From Promethearchaeota archaeon Loki_b32 (GTDB taxonomy: Archaea; Asgardarchaeota; Lokiarchaeia; Sigyniarchaeales; SOKP01), in contig NJBH01000003.1 in assembly GCA_005223125.1 (NCBI GenBank), positions 164,303-228,302 on the forward strand: a stretch of 64,000 nt of DNA, in the 5' to 3' direction. Positions 4,993-11,115 of this stretch are shown in pieces. Position numbers and translations under genes: made by a program. The notes under the pieces are model-generated. The model saw only the letters and a program-made list of their open reading frames with translations. It was not told the origin of the DNA and made no database searches. Each line of letters starts with the position of its first letter. The stretch's first letter is position 1.

Positions 4993-7900
4993 GTGAAATT
5001 TATGGAAGAGAAAAGAGAAGAAGATTTAGATCAAGAATTCGATGATGAGGAGTTAGATTTAACGAAGGATGCTTTTTTTGCCGATATGATAGAGATGGAG
5101 GAAGAGATTGCTACAGAAGCCTATGAGTTAGTGGAACATGCGCTTAATTTAATAACGTCGCATTATTATGATGATGGCATTGAAATTCTTCGTCAGGCTA
5201 TAGGACTATATACCCAGATAAATAGAGAAGATGAAATTAAAGCTATAAATGAAAAAATATCAGAGGTTTACATACTAAAAGAACAAGCATTCAGGGAAGT
5301 TGAAATTGAAGCAGATAAAGTAGTTGAAAAGTTTGAGGAAATTGAAGAAGTTGAGGTTACTGAAGAAGTTGGAAAGATTGAAGAAGTTGGACGGGCTGAA
5401 GATTTGGAAGTAGAGGTAGATTTGATTAAGAAAGCAGACCAATTAGTAGTTGAAGCCCATCAATTAACAAAAAATAACAGATTTGAGGAATCTCTTGATA
5501 AATATGATGAAGCGGAAAAAATTCTTGAAGAGTTAGGTAAAACAGATGAAGTCGAAAGATTATATTCATTAATTGAAGATTGTTATAATAAAAAGGCTGA
5601 CTTCTTACGGAGCGTTAAGAAAGAAGAACTAGAAGAGGAACTAGTGGTTAGTGAAGAATTAGAAGCGCCACGAAGTGAGGAGCAGTTAAAAGCTAAAAGA
5701 TTAAAAAAGTTTCTTGAAACAAAAAAGCATGAGGAAGAGATCTCCTCTAGGGCGTATGAAGTATTAGACAAAGCGGTAGAGTTAGCTAAATTACATGAAT
5801 ATGATCAAGCTTTGAGTTTATATGAAGAAGGAGCAAATTTGTTTAAAGAATTGAACTGGACTTATGAAACCAAGAAAATTAGGGATACAATAGAGCAATT
5901 AGAAAAAGAAAAATTTAGGCATTTTCAAGCTCTTGAAAAAGAAAAAGTACAAATTGAGCAAAAAATTGAAACTGAACTTCAAAAAGAAAAACTAATTGAT
6001 CAGCAGGTAAAAGAAATAGAGGAGAAGAAAAAACTTACTCAGATGGAAAGGATAAGAGGAATAGAATTTCAAAAAATGGAAACCGAATTCTTCAAAGTAC
6101 AAATTGATAATATGGTAACTGAAGCTGCTAGAATGGCACGCGAATATGAATTGGCAATGCAGAAAGCTATAAAAAAAGGAAGATTAGTAGAAGAATGTAT
6201 TTATCCTAAAGTTATTGAAATTTATAAAAAAGTAAAGGAATTACTTATTGATAAAGGTTGGAATAATGAAGCAGCTATTTATGATGATACAATAAAAGTT
6301 TATATTCAGAAATTTGAAAAGGATCAAAAGGTAAGACAAATCGAAGCTGAAAAGACTATAAAACAGAAAGAAGCGGAAGAATTGATTAAGTTTAAAAAAG
6401 AAGATGTAGAAGCGGAATTGAGCGAAGAGCAATTAAGAGCTAGAGAAAAACACCGTCAAGGGGAAATAGAAATACAAAATATTCGAAATAGCATAGAAGA
6501 AATGACAAAAAGAGCCGAACGAGTAGGAAGAGAGTATGAAGTAGCGTTAAGGAAAGGGAAATTTGAATTAAAATGTCCATACCCTGAAATTATCAATATC
6601 TATGAAAAAGCCAAAGAAATGGCACAAGAAAGAGGATGGGATACAGATGTAGCAATTTTCTTAAGTCAGATTAACAAATTTAAAGAAAAATTAGAGAAAG
6701 ACAAAAGATTACGACAAATAGAAGCTGAAAAGGCAAAAAAGCAAGAAGAAGTAGAAGAAATGCATAAAGTTAAAAAAGAAGAACTTGGAGTAGGTTTAAA
6801 TGCTGAGAAGCTCAAATTATTAGAGGAACAAAGAAGATTAGAAGAAGAAAAAGAAGATTTTGATGAAATTTTAAATACAATGATAAATCGAGCCGAAAAA
6901 ATGGCTCGGGAATATGATGTTGCTATGAAAAAAGCCATAAGAAAGGGGGAATTGGCAGAAAACCCTCCATTTTTAAAGATTATTAGTATTTATGAAAGAG
7001 TAATACGAATGTTACTTGATAAAGGAAGAAATGAAGAAGCTGCCACATATGGAAATCAAATAACTTTTTACAATCAAAAATTAGAAAAAGATAATAAATT
7101 AAGAGAAGTTGAGGCGCAAAAAGCCCAAAGAGAAAAAGCACTTGAAGATATGCACAAAGTAGGAAAAAAAGTCGAAATTGATCAAAAAAAATTAAGCACT
7201 GTTGAGAAAAAAAGAGAAGAAAAAGAATTTCAGAAATACATTATCAATATGGCCAATAAAGCAGAAAAATTAGAGAGAGAATTTGATTCATCAATGAAAA
7301 AAGCTGTAAAAAAAGGGGGTGTAATAGAACAAACACCATATTCCGAAATAATAGAAATATATAAGCAAATTAAAGACAATTTATATGAGAGAGGCTGGAT
7401 AGAACAATCACAAATTTATTCAAACCAAATAAAGATTTATCAAGAGAAATCAGAGAAACATGAAAAATTACTAAAAATTGAAGCTCAAAAAATTCAAAGA
7501 GAAAAGGAGTTTGGAGAATTACAAAAAGTAGGTAAAAAAGAAATTAAACCTGCTAAACCTGAAAAAATAAAAGAACTTGAAACTGAAGACAAAGAAGAAG
7601 ATATATTTTTAGATAAAGCAATGAACCTGATTGATGAAGCTGAAAAAGATGTTAGAAGCTATGAACTAAGTATCAAAAAAGATATTTTGGTATATGAGAG
7701 TCCTTATATTAAAGCAATTTCTAATTATGAAGAAGCTAGAGAATTATTCAAAAAAATAGGATGGAATGATGAAGCTAACAGATTAATTAAAACTATTAAA
7801 TTTTATAAGGATAAAAAAGAAAAAGATGATAAATTAAGAATAATTGAACAAAAGAAATTAGAGAAACCAGAAATTAAATTGGAAGCGGTTAAGACTGAAA

Positions 7901-9564
7901 CTGAAAAAGAATTTTTAAAAAGGCAGGAGAGGTTGGCAGAATTTGAAGAAAAACAGAAGGAAGCTGATGAGATTGCTGTAAAGATCTTCAGTATGATTCA
8001 AAATGCTGAGAGAATGGCTCAAGAATACGAATTAAAACTAAAATCTGGAGTTTTTGACTATGAAGCCCCTTATGAAAAAATTATTGATATATATCGCGAA
8101 GCACGAAAGCGTTTTGAAGAAGTCAATTGGAAAGAAGAATCCGTAAAATTAATAGATACTGTTAACTTTTATAAAGAGAAACTGGCGCAAGATAAAAAAA
8201 TTCGCGCTTTAGAATCAGAGAAGGCTAAAAAAAGAGAAGAAGAATTGATGCTTCAACAGGACCTATTAGAGCAAGCGAGATTGGAACAAGAAAAATTGAT
8301 ACAACAGAGAAAAGAATCTTTACATTTAAAAAAAGAACGTATAGCTCAGTTTGAAACTTATAAAGATAAAGCCTTTCGGTTAATGGATCAAGCTAAACGT
8401 GAATTAAGACAAAGTAATTTTGTGAAAGCTATAGAATTTTATAAAGAGAGTGAAAAAATATTCATTGATATAAAATGGGAAGAAGGAATTAAAATGGTTC
8501 GAGATTCAGTCGTAATGATAAGTGGCAAGAAAAAGGCTTATGAACTCGAACAAAAGTCGATTGAAGAAAGAAAAGTTGAAAAATTACTAATAGAAGAAAA
8601 GATAGAAGCAAAATTAGCGGAGGCTCAAGATATAAGAAGAAAACAACAAGAAAAGAAGAGAAGAGAATTTTTAAAAATTCAGAGGGGAAAAGAACAGGAA
8701 AGGGAGATTTCTACAGAGGCGTATGGACTTTTGGAAGAAGGAACCGCTTTAATGGCACGCAAAAATTTCACAGAAGCTTTCGATAGATATATGGAAGCTC
8801 GAGAATTATTTAAAAAAATTTCTTGGCAACGAGAGGTTTCGAGAATAAATAATGAACTATTATTCAAACTTAAAAGGGAGAGGAAGAACGCTGAGATTCT
8901 AGAAGAGATCAAAGTAAAGAAAGTTGAAGAAGAGAAAGAAATAACACTATTAAAAGAAGAAGCAAAGAAAGACCGTAGAGAATTTGAGAGAAGAAAGAAA
9001 GAAGAAAAACGTAAACGCGCCAAAGAAGAACTTGGTAGAAAGATTTCCATTAAATTAGATAAAGCAAGCAAGTTAATCGATGGTTTTAGATATAATGAGG
9101 GAATATTAATGATGCAAGAAGAGCTCCAAAGATTAACAAAATTAGAAAAACATGATGAAATAAAGAGAATTCAGGAACAAATTGATAATTTAAAAGATGG
9201 AGCGGAAATTCCATTAATAACATTAGACGTTAATTCTAAAGATGTTCAAAATAAAAATTTTAAATCTGCATATAAAGCGTTAGATGAAGCTTATGTATCA
9301 ATTGCTAATAATCTCTTCAAGAAAGCGATTTCTGAATTAAGTGAAGCCAAATTTAAACTCAAGGAACTACACATTGGAAAAAAATTCATGAAAGAAATTG
9401 ATAAAAAAATCAATGAATTCAAAAGTAAAGTTAGTAAAAAACCAATCAAAGAAAAAGAAGAGCCTGTTGAAGACGAAATGGAAATTCTCAGAAGACGTGT
9501 TGCTGCAAGACGGGAAGAGAGAAGGAAAAAGGTATTAAATTTATTGGGAAAGCATGAAGAATAA
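4993..9564 (+). CDS. Giant helical-repeat / coiled-coil protein (~13 MIT/TPR-like units)
   Basis: Recurrent AE.MAREYE...PY..II.IY.......GW..E...I..Y..K.EKD units separated by E/K/R-rich helices. Confidence 0.8.
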   Translation: MKFMEEKREEDLDQEFDDEELDLTKDAFFADMIEMEEEIATEAYELVEHALNLITSHYYDDGIEILRQAIGLYTQINREDEIKAINEKISEVYILKEQAFREVEIEADKVVEKFEEIEEVEVTEEVGKIEEVGRAEDLEVEVDLIKKADQLVVEAHQLTKNNRFEESLDKYDEAEKILEELGKTDEVERLYSLIEDCYNKKADFLRSVKKEELEEELVVSEELEAPRSEEQLKAKRLKKFLETKKHEEEISSRAYEVLDKAVELAKLHEYDQALSLYEEGANLFKELNWTYETKKIRDTIEQLEKEKFRHFQALEKEKVQIEQKIETELQKEKLIDQQVKEIEEKKKLTQMERIRGIEFQKMETEFFKVQIDNMVTEAARMAREYELAMQKAIKKGRLVEECIYPKVIEIYKKVKELLIDKGWNNEAAIYDDTIKVYIQKFEKDQKVRQIEAEKTIKQKEAEELIKFKKEDVEAELSEEQLRAREKHRQGEIEIQNIRNSIEEMTKRAERVGREYEVALRKGKFELKCPYPEIINIYEKAKEMAQERGWDTDVAIFLSQINKFKEKLEKDKRLRQIEAEKAKKQEEVEEMHKVKKEELGVGLNAEKLKLLEEQRRLEEEKEDFDEILNTMINRAEKMAREYDVAMKKAIRKGELAENPPFLKIISIYERVIRMLLDKGRNEEAATYGNQITFYNQKLEKDNKLREVEAQKAQREKALEDMHKVGKKVEIDQKKLSTVEKKREEKEFQKYIINMANKAEKLEREFDSSMKKAVKKGGVIEQTPYSEIIEIYKQIKDNLYERGWIEQSQIYSNQIKIYQEKSEKHEKLLKIEAQKIQREKEFGELQKVGKKEIKPAKPEKIKELETEDKEEDIFLDKAMNLIDEAEKDVRSYELSIKKDILVYESPYIKAISNYEEARELFKKIGWNDEANRLIKTIKFYKDKKEKDDKLRIIEQKKLEKPEIKLEAVKTETEKEFLKRQERLAEFEEKQKEADEIAVKIFSMIQNAERMAQEYELKLKSGVFDYEAPYEKIIDIYREARKRFEEVNWKEESVKLIDTVNFYKEKLAQDKKIRALESEKAKKREEELMLQQDLLEQARLEQEKLIQQRKESLHLKKERIAQFETYKDKAFRLMDQAKRELRQSNFVKAIEFYKESEKIFIDIKWEEGIKMVRDSVVMISGKKKAYELEQKSIEERKVEKLLIEEKIEAKLAEAQDIRRKQQEKKRREFLKIQRGKEQEREISTEAYGLLEEGTALMARKNFTEAFDRYMEARELFKKISWQREVSRINNELLFKLKRERKNAEILEEIKVKKVEEEKEITLLKEEAKKDRREFERRKKEEKRKRAKEELGRKISIKLDKASKLIDGFRYNEGILMMQEELQRLTKLEKHDEIKRIQEQIDNLKDGAEIPLITLDVNSKDVQNKNFKSAYKALDEAYVSIANNLFKKAISELSEAKFKLKELHIGKKFMKEIDKKINEFKSKVSKKPIKEKEEPVEDEMEILRRRVAARREERRKKVLNLLGKHEE

Positions 9565-9607: not shown

Positions 9608-9829
9608 TTAATTTACTAAATTTTCTTGAAGTTCGTTTTCCAACTCAGATTCTATCAAACTAGGAGAAAGACTCCTATTTATAGATTCTTCTATCAAATA
9701 TTCTGTTCTAATTAAGTCTCGAATCGCCACTCGAATCGCTTCACTCCTATTCGGGAATTTTCCGTCAACGACAAGGATCTCTAATACTTTTAGATAAGAT
9801 TCAGGTAAGTTTACTGAAATTAGTTTCAT
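9608..9829 (-). CDS. Ribbon-helix-helix (CopG family, CdrS-like) regulator
   Basis: MKLISVNLP...GKFPNRSEAIRVAIRDL. Confidence 0.9.
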   Translation of the reverse strand: MKLISVNLPESYLKVLEILVVDGKFPNRSEAIRVAIRDLIRTEYLIEESINRSLSPSLIESELENELQENLVN

Positions 9830-10425: not shown

Positions 10426-10619
10426 TGATGAAATTGTTTCTTATAATTCATCAATGCCAATTTAGTTTTAACTTTTAAGAAAATATTTTATTTATTAAAT
10501 TTATTATTAATTTAATATTACTATAGAGGAAAAGTATAAATTTCAATTACTTTAAACCTATAATATAAAAAAATTGTCAAATTAAAGAAATCATTAAAAA
10601 TTAGAGTTGAAATAGAAAA

Positions 10620-10933
10620 ATGTCAGAAGCAGACGGAATTCACTGTCAAGTTTGTGGAAAAGATCAATTTTCTCTTGCTCACGATGAGTTAAATTCCTAA
10701 ATCAGGTTTTACGTCATTGGATGAGAAGGGCATTTCCCTTTGTCGAGCAAGGTCAATTAAAAATGTGTGCTGGATGTGGAGCAAAATATCTGGTTTGTGA
10801 GAGTTGTGGAGGTTTATATTGTCGAATTCATCCAGCTTTAGAGAGTTGGGAACTTCCTGATAAATGTTCTAAGTGTGGACATGTAAATAAAGATGTAACT
10901 GCCTGGGATGGTACATCTGCTCGTCACTTCTAA
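10620..10933 (+). CDS. 94-aa multi-CxxC zinc-finger protein split by a 29-nt intron (exons 10620-10688 and 10718-10933)
   Basis: Exon 1 MSEADGIHCQVCGKDQFSLAHDE joins WMRRAFPF...; product has CQVC, CAGC, CESC, CRIH and CSKC. Confidence 0.8.
10689..10717 (+). other. Candidate bulge-helix-bulge (BHB) mRNA intron
   Basis: Central helix GAUG/CGUC, 3-nt bulges AGU and AUU, inner stems UAAA/UUUA and CCU/AGG; cutting after the 2nd bulge nucleotide restores the frame and removes an in-frame TAA. Confidence 0.8.
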
Positions 10934-11115
10934 TATCCTTATATTACTTCGTTTATTTAATTTTAATTTTTTTAAAATGCTATTATTTTAATTAAAAGCT
11001 GTATTCTTTAATATCTCATCTGTTATTTTATTAAATTTAAGTCAAGAAAATTTAAATTTTAAAATTGCAATAATAATGTTAATAAGAAAGTTTATGACAT
11101 ACACGATGATTTAAC

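Follow-up and report, generated by a model that had tools for sequence, protein, structure and literature searches.

A very probable tRNA-type intron in the messenger RNA of a conserved zinc-finger gene of a Lokiarchaeon

Results

The 64,000-nucleotide (nt) stretch of DNA analyzed here, hereafter the window, belongs to Promethearchaeota archaeon Loki_b32 (GenBank assembly GCA_005223125.1, contig NJBH01000003.1, positions 164,303 to 228,302; window coordinates below are on the forward, +, strand). It carries a short zinc-finger gene that is flanked by a 107-amino-acid (aa) open reading frame (ORF) and a GNAT acetyltransferase gene, the latter followed by three RFC-like genes. The zinc-finger gene starts at the ATG at 10620 and is interrupted by a 29-nt insert at 10689..10717, which lies in phase 0 and shifts the reading frame. 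Exon 1 (10620..10688; 23 codons) matches the N-terminus of intronless orthologs and holds the first invariant CxxC pair (C9, C12), while exon 2 (10718..10933; 71 codons plus stop) holds three further invariant CxxC pairs. Excision of the insert joins the two exons into a 94-aa ORF. Without splicing, the reading frame would continue through three codons of the insert up to an in-frame TAA (10698..10700), giving a 26-aa peptide. An earlier note on this DNA had described the insert as a bulge-helix-bulge (BHB) intron. The coordinates, helix, bulges and stems that it gave all agreed with the sequence, and its 29-nt excision to an in-frame 94-aa protein was reproduced. It had also placed the unspliced stop correctly at 10698, but its peptide omitted the three intron codons that precede the stop.

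The insert was placed at 10689-10717 because intronless Promethearchaeota (Lokiarchaeia) orthologs read AHDE/WM across the junction. This reading, with no additional residues, was found in 26 of the first 29 orthologous loci, and the roughly 10 extra residues between HDE and WM that would have pointed to a simple frameshift were not found. Homology left two possible placements, one 1-nt slide apart, of which the BHB rule selects one. The splicing endonuclease EndA cuts each bulge after its second base (PMC2738675), and the boundaries that the earlier note had derived from this rule are the same as those obtained from the intronless orthologs. Of 101 relatives searched with exon 2, 69 matched (within the family, 51 of 60), and the relatives that carry names are mostly Promethearchaeota (Lokiarchaeia).

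The junction can be folded into a BHB in which all four pairs of the central helix form. The exonic 5' strand (10683..10686) pairs with the intronic 3' strand (10712..10715) as G-C, A-U, U-G and G-C, and on opposite strands lie two 3-nt bulges, at 10687..10689 (predicted cut 10688/10689) and 10716..10718 (predicted cut 10717/10718), that are flanked by an intron and an exon helix. The intron hairpin (10690..10711) consists of a 4-bp stem (10690-93/10708-11) and a 3-bp stem (10696-98/10704-06). The exon-exon outer helix (10678..10725) starts with the pair 10682/10719 and continues, after a 2-nt bulge, with 10678-81/10722-25. Only 255 of 200,000 shuffled inserts (0.13%) gave a full BHB at these boundaries. 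A group I or II self-splicing intron was considered and rejected: the insert has 29 nt versus a ribozyme core of well over 100 nt, and no relevant Rfam match was obtained.

Among 100 distinct sequences spanning the region at all loci, nine carried an insert and about 91 did not. Six distinct inserts occupy the same position as that of the window (site 1), namely those of the window itself (29 nt) and of the loci L015 (30), L018 (30), L119 (30), L140 (29) and L160 (30), and they align as homologues. Across these six alleles the central helix was paired in 24 of 24 cells, the third pair being C-G, U-G or U-A. In the intron hairpin 92% of cells were paired over eight pairs, three of which had changes on both sides; the intron stem measured 4-10 bp in most alleles, and one closing exon pair and the outer helix completed the fold. 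Overall, 94% of cells were paired, compared with 35-44% when the partners were slid. RNAalifold recovered the central helix, the 5' bulge and both flanking helices unaided from the six alleles. The covariation that the earlier note had predicted for intron-bearing orthologs was thus borne out by compensatory changes; we take it as support for a conserved BHB and not as a probability, the sequences being kin. Locus L119 (L119:170-565) is a metagenome scaffold that links an intronless and an intron-bearing allele over a gap of Ns, so that both kinds occur in one community.

A second intron site lies 8 nt downstream of the first, at 10725..10726, where it is empty in the window and occupied in relatives. 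Its inserts (32, 30, 30, 29 and 28 nt in L032, L034, L035, L036 and L212) are unrelated to those of site 1. All five are BHB-shaped, their central helices each consisting of four Watson-Crick pairs, and excision by the rule applied at site 1 brings back the conserved WM-x-R reading. When 154 genomes of the order were searched by pattern, each site was matched in four genomes, and the reversed control matched none. With insert lengths of 28, 29, 30 and 32 nt, each of the three frame classes occurs, and the 30-nt alleles all contain an in-frame stop.

The eight cysteines of the protein, arranged in four CxxC pairs, are invariant. Of the five metal-binding dyads claimed previously these four could be upheld; the fifth (C58xxH61) could not, its Cys being Thr in most of the distant relatives. 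We infer that the product is a two-zinc-site protein. The last 18 codons of exon 1 had a proportion of synonymous differences (pS) of 0.28-0.79 versus a proportion of nonsynonymous differences (pN) of 0.02-0.08 when compared with six close intronless relatives, and exon 2 had a pS of 0.21-0.47 versus a pN of 0.02-0.05 in the same comparison. By this measure, both exons are under purifying selection. No second copy of the gene was found in the genome. The AlphaFold2 model of the intronless relative P0003 was confident (predicted local distance difference test, pLDDT, 84). As to function, no Pfam family scored above the cut-off, the best Foldseek E value was 0.53 and the best VIA Z score 3.2; this absence of a fold match is no proof of a new fold. 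Atlas matches of the protein were to unnamed Promethearchaeota clusters.

Several observations weigh against a functional BHB intron in this gene. Under Turner energies, a 2-nt shift of the register gives -16.9 kcal/mol versus -7.7 to -9.0 kcal/mol for the BHB forms; the BHB of this allele is thus not its predicted energy minimum, the shifted register being 8-9 kcal/mol more stable. This competing fold is not conserved, its gap to the BHB ranging from about 1 to 9 kcal/mol among the alleles. The exon-side helix is relaxed, with one pair before a 2-nt bulge. The covariation comes from six related sequences and its shuffle controls were mixed (9 and 13 of 500 versus 166 and 308 of 500), two of the five shuffle measures being unremarkable. 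Finally, a pairwise dN/dS (nonsynonymous to synonymous rate ratio) would miss a loss of function that happened very recently in this lineage.

The genome encodes the enzymes that splicing of a BHB intron would use. Two EndA genes (PF01974) were found, one of them with the Tyr-His-Lys triad, and one RtcB gene (PF01139). The two EndA genes fit a two-subunit enzyme, a type reported to cut relaxed motifs (PMC2738675; PMC5829648). ARAGORN found only 15 tRNA genes in this 95% complete genome, as would be expected if many tRNA genes were heavily interrupted.

Public gene calls mis-handle the intron alleles (P0004, P0006, P0039), either by reading TGA as Trp or by giving an N-terminus that is out of frame; in P0004 and P0039 the TGA of a 30-nt allele was taken through as Trp. 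P0037 (70 aa) turned out to be a mis-called start of an intronless gene. The short contigs P0003 and P0016 were considered as spliced transcripts and rejected, since they are intronless relatives with other synonymous bases. None of the cluster members examined matched the spliced product of this allele. Three RNA runs share only 7-16% of words, which is evidence of nothing, compared with 61-66% for DNA runs of study P2.

To trace the history of the intron, a tree with 61 rows was built from the spliced gene together with GNAT and a portion of RFC, and the mixed scaffold L119 was excluded from the approximately unbiased (AU) test. The site-1 carriers were polyphyletic, and the sister of the window on a starred branch, L117 (94% identity), is intronless. 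Constraining the window to group with L014 was rejected (p-AU 0.0011). The same synonymous choice of Ala and His codons just upstream of the insert was present in all six site-1 carriers versus 5 of 69 intronless alleles, and AGG at Arg27 in five of the six carriers versus 11 of 69 intronless alleles. The exon helix is made up of these shared flank bases, and their presence in the carriers may equally reflect selection for splicing or transfer along with the intron. Exon 1 (10620-10688) is closer to L123 and L031 than to L117, the sister by GNAT-RFC, which hints at recombination within the locus. Searching the rest of the genome for sequence from which the intron could derive gave nothing beyond chance.

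The earlier note had placed the gene just upstream of a GNAT-RFC cluster, and this arrangement is conserved, with GNAT and RFC matches in 87 of 90 loci of at least 3 kb. The spacer between the gene and GNAT is 182 nt long and A/T-rich, with T runs. By eye, a stretch resembling a B recognition element (BRE) and TATA box was noted upstream (10527-10540), and T runs after the stop (10955-10976); from these the zinc-finger gene may be its own transcript, apart from GNAT-RFC. In more distant families (L055, L063, L064, L067 and L068) a more diverged tandem paralog lies just downstream. Elsewhere in the window, a 1523-aa charged, repetitive and probably helical-repeat ORF (4993-9564) lies upstream of a ribbon-helix-helix gene (9608-9829).

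A motif-free census covered 658 genes and 800 kb from two relatives, a small sample in which shared introns and short exons are missed. Four disruptive inserts were found in this genome; the DNA sampled from the two relatives had none. Three of the four inserts, in the zinc-finger gene, an acyl-CoA dehydrogenase-like gene and a histone-like gene, are 29-30 nt long and BHB-like; two of the four passed a preset BHB test, versus 0.13 expected. The acyl-CoA dehydrogenase-like and the histone-like gene lie outside the window on the minus strand, and each contains a 30-nt insert with a stop. In the acyl-CoA dehydrogenase-like gene (G000:C60:2393-2422), three of four central pairs, a 9-bp intron stem and a 4-bp exon stem can form, and removal of the insert gives 100% local identity to the G006 homolog. 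The insert of the histone-like gene (G000:C27:38059-38088) has four of four central pairs, a 3-bp intron stem and no closing exon pair. The fourth insert (G000:C32, minus strand, at a distance of about 33,100 bases to the end of the contig) interrupts a homolog of a G006 ORF; it is 108 nt long and A/T-rich and has no BHB. A de novo genome scan for frame-restoring BHBs showed no enrichment over shifted or wrong-bulge controls; it missed the known positive itself and is thus uninformative.

Discussion

The 29-nt insert is very probably a tRNA-type (BHB) intron in the mRNA of a conserved zinc-finger gene. We infer from the sequence, with high confidence, that it is cut by EndA and ligated by RtcB in the cell, yielding the 94-aa protein. 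The pre-mRNA would fold into the BHB, from which the predicted two-subunit EndA would release the 29-nt piece by cutting each bulge after its second base, and RtcB would join the exons; RNA that escapes splicing would give the 26-aa fragment. Rather than as a conserved switch, the intron is best regarded as a tolerated passenger: it would be spliced constitutively, and close species would gain it, lose it or pass it to one another.

The patchy distribution reflects either an old intron that was precisely lost many times or an intron that moves between species. One tentative possibility is that Asgard mRNAs harbor mobile mini-introns, one family of which spreads at this exact site, carrying along a few neighboring exon bases, in a homing-like gene conversion without an encoded enzyme, while unrelated introns colonise the second site 8 nt away. 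Such mobility fits because homologous introns sit on non-sister branches, the 94% sister is intronless, and the flank codons are shared by all carriers and by few intronless alleles. The data are likewise accounted for by repeated precise loss, the exon helix being under selection.

The earlier note had also proposed that the intron gates expression in the manner of XBP1/HAC1, in which the message of a transcription factor is cut by a stress-activated nuclease, IRE1, at a conserved site with two hairpin loops. Condition-switched splicing would then control the zinc-finger protein or the GNAT-RFC genes. The unspliced RNA does encode a dead 26-aa peptide, the stop falls at the same intron codon in five of the six site-1 alleles, this allele has a competing fold, and a negative regulatory role has been proposed for the cbf5 intron (PMC2738675). 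However, about nine-tenths of the distinct orthologs, including the sister locus L117, lack the intron, two sites are in use, and neither the length and frame effect of the intron nor the competing fold is conserved. Further, EndA is a housekeeping enzyme, and the A/T-rich spacer with its T runs before GNAT makes a coupling to RFC doubtful. A search of the genome for the IRE1 KEN domain (PF06479) gave no match, but the control genomes gave none either. The proposed gate thus found no support and we consider it improbable.

A much smaller probability is given to a pseudogene or assembly error, in which a random insertion broke the gene. The allele does come from a metagenome assembly and scaffold L119 merges intronless and intron-bearing alleles, but homologous inserts occur at the same base in independent assemblies, compensatory changes and selection on both exons speak for a working gene, and the single-copy gene is widely kept within the family. 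Least probable of all is ribosomal recoding of the unspliced mRNA (a programmed frameshift, or UGA read-through including selenocysteine) that adds about 10 residues: although the downstream frame is open from 10688, so that a shift could add 10 residues, and four 30-nt alleles have an in-frame TGA that gene callers translate as Trp in two cases, no intact ortholog has extra residues at the junction, no slippery heptamer was found, the conserved BHB would be left unexplained, and no single event can account for inserts of three frame classes with a stop in every 30-nt allele, -1, +1 or read-through being needed depending on the allele (stops TAA, TAG, TGA).

The constitutively spliced intron proposed here resembles that of XBP1/HAC1 in being short, in changing the frame upon removal and in the use of a tRNA-type ligase, whereas it differs in presenting a BHB to the housekeeping EndA and in its patchy occurrence.

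The closest precedent is the BHB intron in the pre-mRNA of cbf5 (pseudouridine synthase) in Desulfurococcales and Sulfolobales (Watanabe 2002; Yokobori 2009, PMC2738675). Another paper (PMC7714728) cites this intron as the sole previous case in an mRNA and describes a BHB intron in the 5' untranslated region of Haloferax HVO_1309, which is likewise an EndA-cut mRNA intron but lies outside the coding sequence and leaves the frame unaffected. Introns in other archaeal protein genes had been predicted, not confirmed (PMC2738675), and in the literature searched cbf5 is the one archaeal gene with a confirmed intron in its coding sequence. The cbf5 intron and those described here are small coding-sequence introns (16-44 nt and 28-32 nt, respectively) with a BHB at the boundary, a cut between the second and third bulge base, a two-subunit EndA and loss in some lineages. 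They differ in that splicing was demonstrated for cbf5 and is predicted here, that the present introns occur in another phylum (Promethearchaeota) and another gene, with two sites 8 nt apart, and that they are scattered over the tree in about one-tenth of the orthologs, whereas cbf5 shows one old gain and a few losses. No report of Asgard mRNA introns was found in the literature searched, most subscription journals lying outside it. What appears to be new is a coding-sequence BHB intron, a known intron type, in an Asgard gene other than cbf5.

Since this well-supported case comes from the archaea nearest to eukaryotes, it bears on the kinds of RNA splicing that were already present in the ancestor of eukaryotes. 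Intron-bearing and intronless alleles within one genus, and two sites in a short gene, make the gain, loss and spread of mRNA introns directly testable. For annotation it means that gene callers truncate such genes or take a stop as Trp, as in the public calls above.

The non-canonical tRNA introns of Asgard archaea (PMC11291895; bioRxiv 10.64898/2026.10.13.758758) share the motif, the predicted enzyme and the two EndA paralogues with the introns described here, as well as repeated recent gains. Those papers deal with tRNA genes only, the preprint making no mention of mRNA, whereas here the host is a protein-coding gene and failed splicing would truncate the protein.
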